UHGV virus genome: UHGV-0120250
DNA length: 17,104 nt
Reading direction: 5' to 3' (one strand)
Source of the DNA: a virus
This document shows positions 9,325 through 15,564 of the stretch, piece after piece. The position numbers and the translations under genes are program-made. The notes under the pieces were generated by a model, which saw only the letters and a list, made by a program, of their open reading frames with translations, searched no databases and was not told the DNA's origin. Every line of letters begins with the position of its first letter. Within the stretch, counting starts at the first letter, position 1.

Positions 9325-11205
9325 ATGAGGCCAAGTGAACTTAGCGACCTGCTTTGGGCGCAGGTTGACAGGGTGGCTCCGCACCTGTTGCCAAACGGCA
9401 AGAAAGAGGGGCATGAGTGGGTTGCCGGTAACGTCAACGGTGACAAGGGAAACAGCCTTAAGGTCAACCTTAGCGGCAAGAAAAAATGGGCTGATTTCGC
9501 TGAGGGAGACGGCGGTGACATGCTTGATTTGTGGATGGCATGTCGTGGAATTAACCTGCATCAGGCTATGCAGGAAGCGAAAGCCTTTCTCGGAATCAAG
9601 GATGACGATCACCATTTCGATGCCAAACGTGAGAAGAAATTCTCCAGACCTGACCGCAAGAAAATCGCCCGCTACGTTACCAGAACAGAATCCCATCTTG
9701 AGTACCTGCAATCGCGTGGCATATCGCCAGAAGTCGTAAAGCGCTACGAGGTTGTCAGCGGCAAGGTGTGGAATGGAGAACGAGAACTTGATGCACTGGT
9801 GCTTCCGTACAAACGCGATGGTGAGTTGTTGCAGGTCAAGCGAATCAGCACTGAGCGCCCGGACGGGAAGAAAGTCATTATGGCAGAAGGTGATTGTGAA
9901 CCTTGTCTGTTCGGATGGCAGGCTCTGGACGCTGGCGTGAGGGCGGTTGTACTTTGCGAAGGCGAAATTGATTGTATGAGCTATGCGCAATACGGCATCT
10001 CGGCGTTATCCGTGCCGTTTGGTGGCGGGAAAGGCGCTAAGCAACAGTGGATTGAGTTTGAGTATCACAACCTCGACAGGTTTGAGGAAATATTCATCTC
10101 GATGGACGTTGATGATGTTGGTCGTGAAGCCGCAAGGGAAATCGCAAGCCGACTCGGTGAACATCGTTGCCGTCTTGTTACTCTGCCGTACAAAGACATC
10201 AACGAATGCCTGATGAACGGTGTTACCGAGGATGAAATCTGGCAGTACATCGGCACGGCATCCTACTTCGATCCTGAAGAACTCTACAGCGCGCGAGAGT
10301 TTTACCAGGACACTATCAACGCTTTCTACGGCAAGCAGCAGTATCTGTTTAATCCACCGTGGGAATCTCTGGCAGATAAATTCCAGTTCCGTGAGGCCGA
10401 GTTGACGCTGGTCAATGGTGTGAACGGTCACGGAAAAACGGAGGTTGTCGGGCATATGGCACTTGAGGCAATGCGTCAGGGTGTGAAGACGTGCATCGCG
10501 TCACTTGAGCTGAAGCCTGGTATTCTCCTTAAGCGCCTTACCCGTCAGGCGACGTGCTGCAAGATGCCGCCAGTGCTGGAAATTGACTCTGCATTTAAAT
10601 TTTATGACGAAAGACTTTGGGTGTTTGGCCTGACCGGAACGGCGAAAGCCGACAGGCTGATCGAAATATTCGACTACGCTCGCCGCCGATACGGGATCCA
10701 GTTATTCATCATCGACAGCCTGATGAAATGTGGCATAGGCGACGATGACTATAACGGGCAGAAGGCGTTTGTTGACTCGATTTGCGACTTCAAAAACAAA
10801 ACAAACTCCCACGTCATTCTCGTTACTCACTCGCGAAAAGGAGACAGCGAAGAAAAACCAACCGGGAAAATGGACGTAAAAGGCTCTGGAGCGATAACAG
10901 ACCTGACAGACAACCTTTTCATCATCTGGCGTAACAAGGCTCGCGAGAGAGCGTTACAGAGAGTTCAGAGTGGTGAAAAGATGTCAGAGAAGGACGAACA
11001 GCTACTGGCATCTCCGGCATCTGTTTTGATGCTTGAAAAACAACGTAACGGCGAAGGTTGGGAAGGTGGTGTCCCGTTGTTCCTTGACGAGCAATCGCAC
11101 CAGTTCCTGCAACTTGAATCAGGATCGCCTTATAGCTACATCGCCAATATGCCGAAATCGGAATATGACGAGGCGTGGCGACAGGAAAACGTGACGGAGT
11201 ATTAA
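9325..11205 (+). CDS. bifunctional DNA primase (Toprim) / RecA-fold replicative helicase, 626 aa
   Basis: GAGGG SD before ATG 9325; Toprim-like acidic cluster (VVLCEGEIDCMSYAQ ... ISMDVDDVG); Walker A-like LVNGVNGHGKTEV and Walker B-like LFIIDSLMK in the C-terminal half. Occupies the lambda P position. Confidence 0.9.
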   Translation: MRPSELSDLLWAQVDRVAPHLLPNGKKEGHEWVAGNVNGDKGNSLKVNLSGKKKWADFAEGDGGDMLDLWMACRGINLHQAMQEAKAFLGIKDDDHHFDAKREKKFSRPDRKKIARYVTRTESHLEYLQSRGISPEVVKRYEVVSGKVWNGERELDALVLPYKRDGELLQVKRISTERPDGKKVIMAEGDCEPCLFGWQALDAGVRAVVLCEGEIDCMSYAQYGISALSVPFGGGKGAKQQWIEFEYHNLDRFEEIFISMDVDDVGREAAREIASRLGEHRCRLVTLPYKDINECLMNGVTEDEIWQYIGTASYFDPEELYSAREFYQDTINAFYGKQQYLFNPPWESLADKFQFREAELTLVNGVNGHGKTEVVGHMALEAMRQGVKTCIASLELKPGILLKRLTRQATCCKMPPVLEIDSAFKFYDERLWVFGLTGTAKADRLIEIFDYARRRYGIQLFIIDSLMKCGIGDDDYNGQKAFVDSICDFKNKTNSHVILVTHSRKGDSEEKPTGKMDVKGSGAITDLTDNLFIIWRNKARERALQRVQSGEKMSEKDEQLLASPASVLMLEKQRNGEGWEGGVPLFLDEQSHQFLQLESGSPYSYIANMPKSEYDEAWRQENVTEY

Positions 11206-11234
11206 ATGACCATCTACATCACTGAGCTAATAAC

Positions 11235-11267
11235 AGGCCTGCTGGTAATCGCAGGCCTTTTTATTTG
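11235..11267 (+). terminator. intrinsic terminator between the replication genes and the nin region (tR2-like position)
   Basis: AGGCCTGC-tggtaatc-GCAGGCCT followed by TTTTTATTT. Confidence 0.6.
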
Positions 11268-11282
11268 GGGGAGAGGGAAGTC

Positions 11283-11699
11283 ATGAAAAAACTAACCTTT
11301 GAAATTCGATCTCCAGCACATCAGCAAAACGCTATTCACGCGGTACAGCAAATTCTTCCAGACCCAACCAAACCAATCGTAGTAACCATTCAGGAACGCA
11401 ACCGCAGCATTCGGCAAAATGCACGCCTTCACGCGATGCTATCTGAAATAAGTAAGAAGGCTACATATCATGGAAAAGCAAGAAATATTGAGTTTTGGAA
11501 GGGGTTATTCGTTTCTGGTTGGCAGATTGCAACCAACCAGCACCCTGAGATTATATCAGGGTTAGAAGGTGAGCTAATAAACATCAGAGAGAGTACGGCG
11601 ACTCTATCTGTAAAAAAAATATCCGAAATAATGGACTACATAGAAGCATATTGTGCCATGAACTCAATTCATCTTAGCGAATGGAGGGATTATGATTGA
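11283..11699 (+). CDS. ninB: NinB (Orf-family recombination mediator), 138 aa, C-terminally altered
   Basis: First 42 residues MKKLTFEIRSPAHQQNAIHAVQQILPDPTKPIVVTIQERNRS match lambda NinB as recalled; the rest is divergent but alignable; the track ORF starts 6 codons earlier. Confidence 0.85.
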   Translation: MKKLTFEIRSPAHQQNAIHAVQQILPDPTKPIVVTIQERNRSIRQNARLHAMLSEISKKATYHGKARNIEFWKGLFVSGWQIATNQHPEIISGLEGELINIRESTATLSVKKISEIMDYIEAYCAMNSIHLSEWRDYD

Positions 11700-12294
11700 G
11701 GTTTGGGTAGATATCGAAGGGATTCCATTTTATCAGGTTAGCAATAAAGGAAATTTCAGGTCTATTACGAGGGAAGTTACAGTAACATCAACCAGACAGA
11801 GGCCATATAAGAAAATAATTAATGGCACTAGCATAAAACCATTCAAGTGCAAGTCGACAGGATATCTTCAAATAAAGGTATACGGTAAGAAATACAGCGC
11901 CCACAGGATAGTTGCGAAAGCATTCTGTACAGGGTTCTGTGATGGCTTGGTAGTTAATCACAAAAATGGGCAAAGAGATGACAATAGGGCTGAAAACCTT
12001 GAATGGGTATCACATTCTGAAAACTCAAAGCACGGATATAAACAAAATGGAAGAATACCTATATCGCTAGGTAAATTTAGTGGTGATCATCCTGCCAGTA
12101 AAGCTGTTATTTCTACTGACATGAAAACTGGTGAGGAGGTTTATTATGAAGCAGCTATGGATGCTGTCAGAGAAGGATTTGATAGTTCGTCAATTAGTCG
12201 TTGCTGTAATGGCGAAAGCTCATATCACAAAGGAAGATTCTGGCGATTTGCAAATGAAACAATGAAAGCAAGATGGGGAGATCGGGCTGCATGA
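11692..12294 (+). CDS. HNH homing-type endonuclease with NUMOD4 motif, 200 aa
   Basis: N-terminal EVWVDIEGIPFYQVSNKGNFRSI (NUMOD4-like) and HNH core NHKNGQRDDNRAENLEWVSHSEN; start overlaps the ninB stop; the last 9 residues KARWGDRAA equal the lambda NinB C-terminus. Confidence 0.85.
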   Translation: MIEVWVDIEGIPFYQVSNKGNFRSITREVTVTSTRQRPYKKIINGTSIKPFKCKSTGYLQIKVYGKKYSAHRIVAKAFCTGFCDGLVVNHKNGQRDDNRAENLEWVSHSENSKHGYKQNGRIPISLGKFSGDHPASKAVISTDMKTGEEVYYEAAMDAVREGFDSSSISRCCNGESSYHKGRFWRFANETMKARWGDRAA

Positions 12295-12818
12295 CTATCA
12301 AATCAAATACGCCAGCACACGACAAGGACTGCTGGCAAACGCCGCTTTGGCTTTTTGATGCACTGGATATTGAGTTTGGATTCTGGCTGGATTCGGCAGC
12401 GAGCGACAAAAATGCTCTGTGTGCTCACTGGCTAACTGAGGCCGACGACGCGCTCAATTCTGAGTGGGTAAGCCACGGTGCAATCTGGAATAACCCACCG
12501 TACAGCAATATCAGGCCGTGGGTGGAAAAAGCCGCTGAGCAGTGCATACAACAGCGACAGACGGTAGTTATGCTTGTGCCAGAGGATATGTCAGTCGGAT
12601 GGTTCAGCAAGGCTCTGGAGAGTGTCGACGAAGTTCGCATTATCACTGATGGACGGATTAATTTTATCGAACCATCGACAGGGCTGGAGAAGAAGGGAAA
12701 CAGCAAAGGCTCCATGCTGCTGATTTGGCGACCGTTCATCAGTCCTCGACGGATGTTTACTACCGTATCCAAAGCGGCATTGATGGCGATCGGGCAGGGC
12801 GTCAGGAGGGCGGCATGA
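12291..12818 (+). CDS. phage DNA N6-adenine methyltransferase (Dam family), 175 aa
   Basis: Catalytic NPPY motif ([10 protein letters not shown]); ATGA overlap with the HNH stop; internal start of the track ORF 12273..12818. Confidence 0.85.
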
Positions 12819-12991
12819 GGCGACAGCGACGAAGTATCACCGACATAATCTGCGAAAACTGCAAATACCTTCCAACGAAACGCTCCAGAAATAAACGCAA
12901 GCCAATCCCAAAAGAATCTGACGTAAAAACCTTCAACTACACGGCTCACCTGTGGGATATCCGGTGGCTAAGACATCGTGCGAGGAAATGA
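12815..12991 (+). CDS. ninE: NinE, 58 aa
   Basis: [58 protein letters not shown] matches lambda NinE as recalled; ATGA overlap with the dam stop. Confidence 0.85.
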
Positions 12992-13395
12992 CAATGCTTT
13001 TAATTCAACCAGGATTTGGCCTTAGCATCAAAAAAGGGCACATGTTTGGCGAGAAAGAATCTCAACGAAAAATGGTGTCGATACAGTTGCCATTTATCAG
13101 TATTTATTGGCTAAACAGGGAGGCAACAAATTATTGGTATACATGCGCCAGAGCAGCATTTAACGACCCTGACTGGTTTGTGAAAAACCACCACGCAGTT
13201 CGTCAGGCAAAGAGAAAGGCCAATACGACATACATGAAGGCGTATCGAAAAGCATGGAAAGAACACCGCGATCGATACCAGCAAGATATGGAAAAGCTTG
13301 AATCAGAAAACATGGAATTAAGACGAAAGCTTGGTGAAGCAAAACGAGACATTGATGCTTACAAGCGACTTTTTAATGGTGAAAGCCATGCTTAG
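12988..13395 (+). CDS. hypothetical protein, about 135 aa, with a predicted C-terminal coiled coil
   Basis: ORF between ninE and ninF with start/stop overlaps at both ends (ATGA with ninE, ATGCTTAG with ninF); no recognisable family. Confidence 0.5.
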
Positions 13396-15408: not shown

Positions 15409-15483
15409 GGGTCAGTCGTATAAAGGTCATTACGGAAGGCTGTTAACCTTCTTATCGTGGTTCGAGTCCACGCTGTCCCGCCA
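15409..15483 (+). tRNA. tRNA-Asn-like (anticodon GUU), CCA encoded; imperfect acceptor and D stems
   Basis: Cloverleaf folded by hand: acceptor gggtcag/ctgtccc (one T-T mismatch), anticodon stem gaagg/ccttc, loop CUGUUAA, T-arm cgtgg-TTCGAGT-ccacg, discriminator G, CCA. Confidence 0.5.
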
Positions 15484-15488
15484 AACAT

Positions 15489-15564
15489 GCTGTTTTAGCT
15501 CCAATGGTAGAGCGGTCGCCTTGTAAGCGAATGGGTAGCGGTTCAAGTCCGTTAAACAGCACCA
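15489..15564 (+). tRNA. tRNA-Thr (anticodon UGU), CCA encoded
   Basis: Cloverleaf by hand: perfect 7-bp acceptor gctgttt/aaacagc, D-arm gctc-caatggta-gagc, anticodon loop CUUGUAA, T-arm agcgg-TTCAAGT-ccgtt, discriminator A, CCA. Confidence 0.6.

Follow-up and report, generated by a model that had tools for sequence, protein, structure and literature searches.

Gene organization at the ninB locus

We analysed a 17,104-nucleotide (nt) stretch of the virus genome UHGV-0120250 (hereafter the window), in which the nin operon of a lambdoid prophage carries a putative HNH homing endonuclease gene in the 3' end of ninB. Three open reading frames (ORFs) lie head to tail on the + strand: ninB, the HNH gene and a gene for a Dam-family methyltransferase. 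The ninB ORF (11283-11699) encodes 138 amino acids (aa) and matches PF05772 (E = 1.2e-40; profile positions 2-129 of 131). Its codons 1-42 (11283-11408) are of lambda type, encoding a protein segment identical to residues 1-42 of NinB from lambda, Sf101, 434 and P22; the sequence diverges after residue 42 and ends early, with ...SEWRDYD, as a preliminary description of this locus had stated. Codons 43-138 and the stop (11409-11699) belong to a different NinB subfamily, here called NinB*, with the PF05772 match spanning the whole 138-aa protein.

The HNH ORF (11692-12294, + strand; 200 aa) begins with an ATG at 11692, 8 nt inside ninB, the stop codon of which is at 11697-11699 (ATGATTGA). As read from the sequence, a GGAGG Shine-Dalgarno motif for this start lies inside the last ninB* codons (11683-11687, + strand), and the TGA that ends the HNH ORF (12292-12294) overlaps the methyltransferase ATG (12291-12293) in an ATGA (12291-12294, + strand), the original junction between ninB and the gene after it. 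The overlaps of the HNH gene with both of its neighbours thus lie where the preliminary description had placed them. The third ORF (12291-12818, + strand; 175 aa) encodes a phage Dam-family N6-adenine methyltransferase (PF05869, E = 7e-65); the longest form of this ORF begins at 12273, and the annotated start of its relatives corresponds to 12291.

The nuclease resembles I-HmuI

In Pfam, the HNH protein matched NUMOD4 (E = 4.7e-14) and HNH_3 (PF13392; E = 8.2e-12, above the cut-off), and a C-terminal match to the I-HmuI NUMOD-like family was below threshold (19.3 versus 27 bits). A PHROG helix-turn-helix family matched residues 134-188, and the PADLOC homing-endonuclease model ('HEase') matched residues 5-190 (E = 8.5e-27). 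By sequence, the only relative of solved structure was I-HmuI (PDB 1U3E; E = 4e-14 over residues 54-186). An AlphaFold (AF2) model built on 25 orthologues had a mean predicted local distance difference test (pLDDT) score of 85, and a Foldseek search with this predicted model returned 1U3E as the sole significant match (E = 9e-12, 190 columns, 29% identity). The HNH beta-beta-alpha metal motif is present with its conserved histidine and asparagine and could be aligned to that of I-HmuI; among the 25 orthologues, motif residues H90, N98, N102 and N111 are invariant and H114 is nearly so (at least 90%). DNA-binding modules flank this motif on both sides, NUMOD4 at the N terminus and a helical NUMOD-like module at the C terminus. 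The conserved core of such NUMOD4-type nucleases ends at HKGxxWRF, beyond which 0 to about 22 variable residues follow. The HNH protein had no match to DUF968 (PF06147) in Pfam.

The nuclease gene is a separate ORF in another frame than ninB and has its own Shine-Dalgarno motif, which is not the arrangement of an intron- or intein-encoded gene. No Rfam intron family matched in the window, so an intron-encoded enzyme was rejected, and promoter-like sites for the HNH gene were in no excess over shuffled sequences. Upstream of ninB lies a small ninA-like ORF (11206-11286); within it is a strong intrinsic-terminator-like hairpin (11235-11258) with a T run after it, which occupies the position of lambda tR2. 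The absence of an intron family and of a promoter excess, together with the tR2-like terminator 5' of ninB, suggests that the nuclease gene is a free-standing member of the nin operon, and with this terminator in place, expression of ninB* and of the HNH gene would need antitermination. A terminase-associated HNH protein, acting as a packaging helper, was rejected on account of the position in the nin operon and the I-HmuI-like architecture.

A cassette replaces most of ninB and captures its tail

To define the boundaries of the inserted DNA, we aligned the window and compared it by BLAST with phages in which ninB is uninterrupted (Sf101, 434 and lambda), as the preliminary description had proposed, and found in Sf101 a near-isogenic allele without the nuclease gene. 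The two sequences are 98.9% identical over 9700-11408, a 1709-nt block that includes the 5' part of ninB, serves as the left homology arm of the replacement and ends exactly at 11408, and 99.5% identical over 12264-12996. Between these blocks, a segment of 855 bp (11409-12263, + strand) stands in place of 284 bp of lambda-type ninB. It contains ninB codons 43-138 of the NinB* type and HNH residues 1-191, with its left edge after ninB codon 42, within the conserved ...QERNRS codons, and its right edge at HNH codon 191 (ATG, 12262-12264); it is also GC-poor, at 0.37-0.41 compared with 0.50-0.53 for the flanks. The nuclease gene and NinB* codons 43-138 form one 855-bp low-GC cassette. Because 855 bp stand where Sf101 has 284 bp, the event was a replacement rather than a plain insertion at the junction of ninB and dam: the preliminary description was right in placing the nuclease gene at the 3' end of ninB, but the insertion that it envisaged was not clean, as codons 43-138 were exchanged as well.

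The last nine residues of the HNH protein, KARWGDRAA, are the last nine residues of the lambda (138-146), Sf101 and 434 NinB proteins, and they are encoded, with the stop, at 12265-12294 (+ strand) in the HNH frame. This DNA is not a chance match, because 12264-12294 is identical to the 3' end of Sf101 ninB at 30 of 31 nt and opens one continuous 733-nt match to Sf101 (99.5%) that extends into dam. In a shuffle test, none of 5000 shuffles was as NinB-like as the HNH tail of the window (0/5000). The junction GCNGCATGA terminates ninB in lambda, 434, Sf101, P22 and 933W, and terminates the HNH gene in SEN22 and in loci L010 and L012-L015. An allele lacking the nuclease gene thus exists, and the C-terminal identity holds against actual NinB sequences. 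Beyond the right edge of the cassette, the nuclease frame continues across the final nine codons of the resident ninB and stops at the original ATGA junction.

We also observed an Ala-Ala-stop on the conserved GCNGCATGA sequence, overlapping the ATG of the next gene, whichever gene that is, in loci with very divergent NinB proteins. It ends ninB in L002, L003, L004, L005 and L008, ends the HNH gene in L006, L010 and L012-L015, and occurs in many viral-contig loci (L021, L062, L067, L071, L075, L081 and L090). This conservation may reflect a coupling signal or a recombination linker.

The cassette occurs sporadically and in several genomic flanks

In a phage collection, the NinB* core was found at 80% identity or more in 65 records; the HNH gene adjoined it in all the matches listed, and among these no such core was seen without the HNH gene. 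At 95% identity or more, the NinB* and HNH counts agree (63 records each), and the next-best NinB beyond the NinB* core set was 44% identical. The cassette is present in 77 of 5426 complete E. coli genomes, always whole, with its two genes annotated as "recombination protein NinB" and "NUMOD4 domain-containing protein". The lambda-type ninB core is present in 1307 of the same 5426 genomes, about 17 times as many as carry the cassette. The cassette is therefore sporadic, against a common empty allele with uninterrupted ninB that is exemplified by Sf101, 434 and lambda. A scan of bacterial genomes with one genome per species found only four loci.

At 98% identity or more, the cassette stands behind at least three types of ninB 5' end: the lambda type, the phi419 type of Stx2a phages, and a third, unrelated one (L050) that joins the cassette within 12-15 nt of the same left edge. 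It stands ahead of dam, two ninC variants or ninD-like genes, and beside replication modules of the primase/helicase, O/P/ren or DnaB type. In Salmonella phage SEN22, a cassette of about 75% DNA identity has the same left edge between flanks that are 95-97% identical, and ninD follows it; its nuclease ends in ...ERMAA, and the last codons, GCCGCATGA, are those of a P22-type ninB. The nearly identical cassette in several flanks, the left edge shared with SEN22 and the low GC content support movement of the cassette as a unit.

Between the window and SEN22, NinB* has a dN of 0.084 with a dS of about 2.6, and the nuclease a dN of 0.147 with saturated dS; saturation of synonymous sites precluded a dN/dS estimate for most pairs. 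With dN far below saturated dS, both proteins are kept under purifying selection.

NinB* relatives carry overlapping nuclease genes

NinB* is a real subfamily with the core motif ...EFWKGLFVSGWQIAT...GLEGEFINIRESTA.... It aligns with lambda Orf (1PC6) over residues 1-126 (E = 3e-34) and lacks the last approximately 12 residues, including W137. The missing part is the C-terminal helix of lambda Orf (residues ~135-146, W137 included), nine residues of which are found on the HNH protein. In lambda Orf, the C-terminal region takes part in DNA binding (PMC4118853). At the end of NinB*, the codons for W-R or G-G, followed by x-Y-D/E, supply the GGAG Shine-Dalgarno motif and the ATG of the downstream gene, and an equivalent GGAG precedes the downstream start in L010, L012, L013, L014 and L017. 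Because these codons serve the next gene, the short end of NinB* is a property of the arrangement, common to the whole subfamily, and not a recent truncation in the window. We considered a simple insertion after the lambda W137 codon, with NinB* '...SEW' corresponding to lambda 'LEW', and rejected it, as the tails of the nucleases in L012 and L013 keep an '...EW/DW...' of their own and the NinB* W-R/G-G codons encode the Shine-Dalgarno motif of the next gene. Within ninB*, a run of eight adenines (11612-11619; codons V-K-K-I) is a run of seven in two of 31 near-identical viral-contig cassettes (L049 and L051), which shortens NinB* to ...VKKYPK; the difference points either to a slippage hot spot or to an error in sequencing the homopolymer.

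NinB* relatives of 55-66% identity, from Yersinia kristensenii, a Pantoea metagenome-assembled genome, Acinetobacter-associated contigs and metagenomes, are accompanied by an HNH_3 gene, with 8-32 nt of overlap at the ninB stop. In Aeromonas phage-like contigs, a NinB that is 42% identical to that of the window over the core is overlapped by 20 nt by an orthologous nuclease gene. The Aeromonas-like contigs L101 and L102 (2104-3365) show the order ninB, NUMOD4-HNH gene, RecA-dependent nuclease gene (Ref-like, with a weak DUF968 match), the HNH gene there separating the Orf-family gene from a nuclease of the sort that Gram-positive phages have fused to NinB. We found two unrelated nuclease architectures at the ninB 3' site, the NUMOD4-HNH_3 type of the window and an HNH_3-AP2 type (L012, L013, L052, L054 and L086). 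Because these relatives all carry an overlapping HNH gene, and these genes are of two unrelated architectures, the ninB 3' end appears to be a recurrent niche for nuclease genes.

Apart from the window, significantly NinB-like tails were found by the shuffle test in P0136, which has the longest (...SRLEIEWATRWGKS, 0/5000), L012 (...AIEWASRFGDKQRAAA, 0/5000) and L013 (19/5000); the idea that all orthologues carry NinB tails was dropped, as only these and the window passed. A significantly NinB-like end can occur with either of the two nuclease architectures, L012 and L013 being of the AP2 type. A NinB*-type gene with no nuclease gene (L018) encodes 147 aa with a tail like that of lambda NinB, ...KKWSARWGA, and ybcO comes directly after it. 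In Klebsiella and in one metagenome, orthologous nucleases follow a 143-aa protein that is weakly NinB-like (E = 0.004), and in a Pseudomonas aeruginosa prophage (L096, 2166-2504) the gene before an orthologous nuclease, itself ending in ...DYWEAA, encodes not NinB but a coiled-coil-like protein of 112 aa. At one further locus (L017, 3413-3595), the ORF behind a NinB* relative has the same 8-nt overlap but encodes 60 aa, matches no family and stands in place of a nuclease gene.

A probable homing endonuclease gene and its alternatives

From these comparisons, we consider it reasonably probable that the window carries a free-standing I-HmuI-type HNH homing endonuclease gene in the ninB 3' end of a lambdoid prophage, and that this gene has spread together with co-converted ninB*. 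The likeness to I-HmuI and the existence of HNH-free alleles support the view, already put forward in the preliminary description, of a homing-type gene that reads out through the old ninB 3' end; the gene is also sporadic in ninB. The HNH gene, having no promoter signal of its own, would be co-transcribed with the delayed-early nin operon. Its translation would begin from the GGAGG in the last ninB* codons, with the start coupled to the overlapping ninB* stop, and its own stop on the old ATGA would preserve the translational coupling of the downstream gene, here dam. During mixed infection, or upon induction of a prophage beside a related phage, the enzyme would nick or cut HNH-free ninB DNA; repair by recombination from an HNH-carrying genome would copy the nuclease gene with the adjoining ninB* core, and such co-conversion would yield the mosaic ninB of the window. 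This scheme agrees with the established behaviour of the free-standing endonuclease genes of phage T4: their starts overlap the ORF before them, double-strand-break repair spreads them and flanking markers are co-converted; their cleavage sites may be distant from the gene, and marker exclusion results (PMC2988022).

Several points weigh against spread by homing. The same mosaics would be expected from ordinary exchange of lambdoid modules at the conserved ends of ninB, and the total linkage of the HNH gene to the NinB* core could come from missing homology inside the core. The pairing has persisted through saturated synonymous divergence, with both genes diverging roughly in parallel, and purely selfish elements are usually patchier. 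Decayed copies are few: we found two interrupted nuclease genes, one cut by an IS1-like element in a Mixta genome (L019, 2910-3640) and one by an insertion of about 1.2 kb after codon 46 in one E. coli viral contig (L039, 3049-4246), and none killed by point mutation. Variable ends of the co-conversion tract are hinted at by a single nucleotide polymorphism, and the nuclease tails of L014, L015, P0156, L010 and SEN22 were not significantly NinB-like in the shuffle test. Homing itself, like the cleavage activity and the target site, is putative.

The main alternative, though an unlikely one, is that the HNH protein is not, or is no longer, selfish and forms with NinB* a two-gene recombination module, in which the nuclease nicks or breaks DNA and the Orf-family mediator loads RecA or a phage annealase there, the module having no other means of spread than the ordinary mosaic recombination of lambdoid phages at conserved ends of ninB. 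In lambdoid phages, there are well-documented cases of mosaic exchange at short conserved sequences; from E. coli to Acinetobacter and Aeromonas, NinB* and the HNH gene stay paired, with stop and start always overlapping; purifying selection on both genes and their roughly parallel divergence also fit; and NinB-HNH fusions of Gram-positive phages have been interpreted as functional cooperation (PMC2034487, PMC4118853). However, the nuclease has the architecture of site-specific homing enzymes such as I-HmuI and not that of the zinc-finger HNH of the DUF968 fusions, a family with no match here, and two unrelated nuclease architectures swap at the same site within the NinB* clade. In Aeromonas, moreover, a Ref-like RecA-dependent nuclease is encoded separately, with the HNH gene between its gene and ninB; orthologues also stand behind a weakly NinB-like or a non-NinB gene, and many more E. 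coli genomes (about 17-fold) have a lambda-type ninB without the nuclease. Rather improbable, in our estimation, is a related proposal in which NinB* and the downstream HNH protein are a co-evolved two-gene unit of gammaproteobacterial lambdoid phages, an ex-homing endonuclease having been recruited into recombination. The nick or break made by the nuclease would then be the substrate for the shortened Orf-type mediator, and the NinB-derived tail would be a remnant or, in some lineages, a working tether, in parallel to the NinB-HNH fusion proteins of Gram-positive phages.

The captured tail invites the thought that NinB has been split, such that its C-terminal helix, now on the nuclease, docks the enzyme to the NinB* dimer in a genes-in-pieces arrangement with a new function. 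In keeping with this, NinB* lacks the last approximately 12 residues of lambda Orf, W137 among them, which are contributors to DNA binding (PMC4118853); the tail of the HNH protein is predicted to be helical; and longer NinB-like tails occur on some orthologues and on the unrelated AP2-type nucleases. The helix is predicted at low confidence, however, and the conserved part is the final AA-stop/ATG junction, which points to translational coupling and not to protein contact. In SEN22 and Yersinia, no more than two or three residues of the tail are left and the gene pair is retained; a docking role for the tail is therefore unlikely, and we regard the split-protein explanation as very doubtful. 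We give hardly any credence to the restriction-modification-like pair that the preliminary description had raised, in which the HNH nuclease would act with Dam and the methylase would protect the phage's own DNA. Such a pair would fit the adjacency and the ATGA overlap, in the window and in Stx2a phages, but that overlap is simply the old ninB/dam junction. An HNH gene at least 99% identical precedes ninC in APC_JM3.2 and ninD-like genes in several viral contigs; the SEN22 relative, at 78%, precedes ninD, and distant HNH relatives precede ninE, ybcO-region genes, unknown genes or a RecA-dependent nuclease gene. The same dam, in turn, follows an uninterrupted ninB in 434, Sf101, 933W and HK97, so that HNH and Dam are not inherited together. 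Since the HNH gene occurs with other neighbours and Dam occurs without the HNH gene, the nuclease is linked to ninB and not to Dam, which is an incidental neighbour.

Relation to known systems

I-HmuI of Bacillus phage SPO1 (1U3E), an HNH nicking enzyme, has the same three-part layout, with an N-terminal beta DNA-binding module, the HNH motif and a C-terminal helical DNA-binding module. It lies inside a group I intron of the DNA polymerase gene, whereas the nuclease gene of the window, the activity of which is putative, is intronless and stands free in the end of ninB. The free-standing endonuclease genes of T4-like phages (mobE, segF, segG and others) are likewise intronless and lie between conserved genes or at their ends, with starts that overlap the upstream ORF (UAAUGA for mobE, 11-24 bp for others); in the window, the start overlap is 8 nt and the end overlap is the ATGA. 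Break repair spreads the T4 genes, and the accompanying co-conversion is observed as marker exclusion (PMC2988022); the counterpart in the window is the co-travelling ninB* segment. Unlike the T4 genes, the window nuclease belongs to the nin operon of a temperate lambdoid phage or prophage and has absorbed the last codons of the gene that it entered.

In Aeromonas phage Aeh1, as cited in PMC2988022, mobE splits nrdA into genes in pieces, an endonuclease gene thus standing in a conserved coding sequence while the altered host protein is reportedly functional. Compared with Aeh1, only the last approximately 12 residues of NinB are cut off in the window, and they are translated within the nuclease rather than as a separate NinB fragment. 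Among P22-like and lambdoid phages, gene 31 of epsilon34 has an eaE-like N terminus fused in frame to an HNH homing endonuclease (PMC2629481); that fusion is at the N terminus of the nuclease, in the early-left operon, whereas the fusion in the window is at the C terminus, in ninB. The NinB/Orf-HNH fusions of Gram-positive phages (DUF968, PF06147) also associate an Orf-family mediator with an HNH nuclease (PMC2034487, PMC4118853), but they are single polypeptides with a zinc-finger Ref-like HNH, whereas the window has two ORFs in different frames and a nuclease of the HNH_3/I-HmuI kind.

Public databases already annotate the gene as HNH/NUMOD4, and there are precedents for free-standing HNH homing endonucleases and for their in-frame fusion to resident genes, such as gene 31 of epsilon34 (PMC2629481). 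Our searches of the open-access literature gave no paper on the ninB site, on the NinB* core that travels with the nuclease gene, on the captured tail or on the recurrence of two architectures at this site.

Approximately 1.4% of complete E. coli genomes have the gene, and many Stx2a-converting prophages, from O157:H7 and strains related to it, are among the carriers; its annotation there goes no further than "NUMOD4 domain-containing protein" or "HNH endonuclease". An active enzyme would offer a concrete example of how gene conversion driven by an endonuclease shapes the mosaic nin region in lambdoid and Shiga-toxin phages, with one recombination-mediator allele pushed through phage populations; the enzyme may also be a new long-site nickase or cutter. 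The locus also illustrates how such a gene can become established in an operon at little cost, by providing a stop for the truncated ninB, overlapping its start codon with that stop and keeping the old stop/start junction. For phage annotation, the end of ninB could be flagged as a recurrent landing site.

Other features of the window

A 301-aa ORF (5745-6650, - strand) encodes a BstA abortive-infection protein (PADLOC, E = 2e-105; PHROG 6287, E = 2e-132) and is placed between the genes for an N-like antiterminator and a cI-like repressor, close to a SieB superinfection-exclusion gene (4306-4887, + strand). Downstream, two tRNA genes, Asn-GTT and Thr-TGT, lie at 15409-15564, between the Q-like antiterminator gene and the holin gene. 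The only matches of a 147-aa ORF 3' of ninE (12952-13395) are PHROGs of unknown function (phrog_1511, E = 6e-86); at the same position Sf101 has NinX, a different protein, and 12997-13387 of the window has no match in Sf101.

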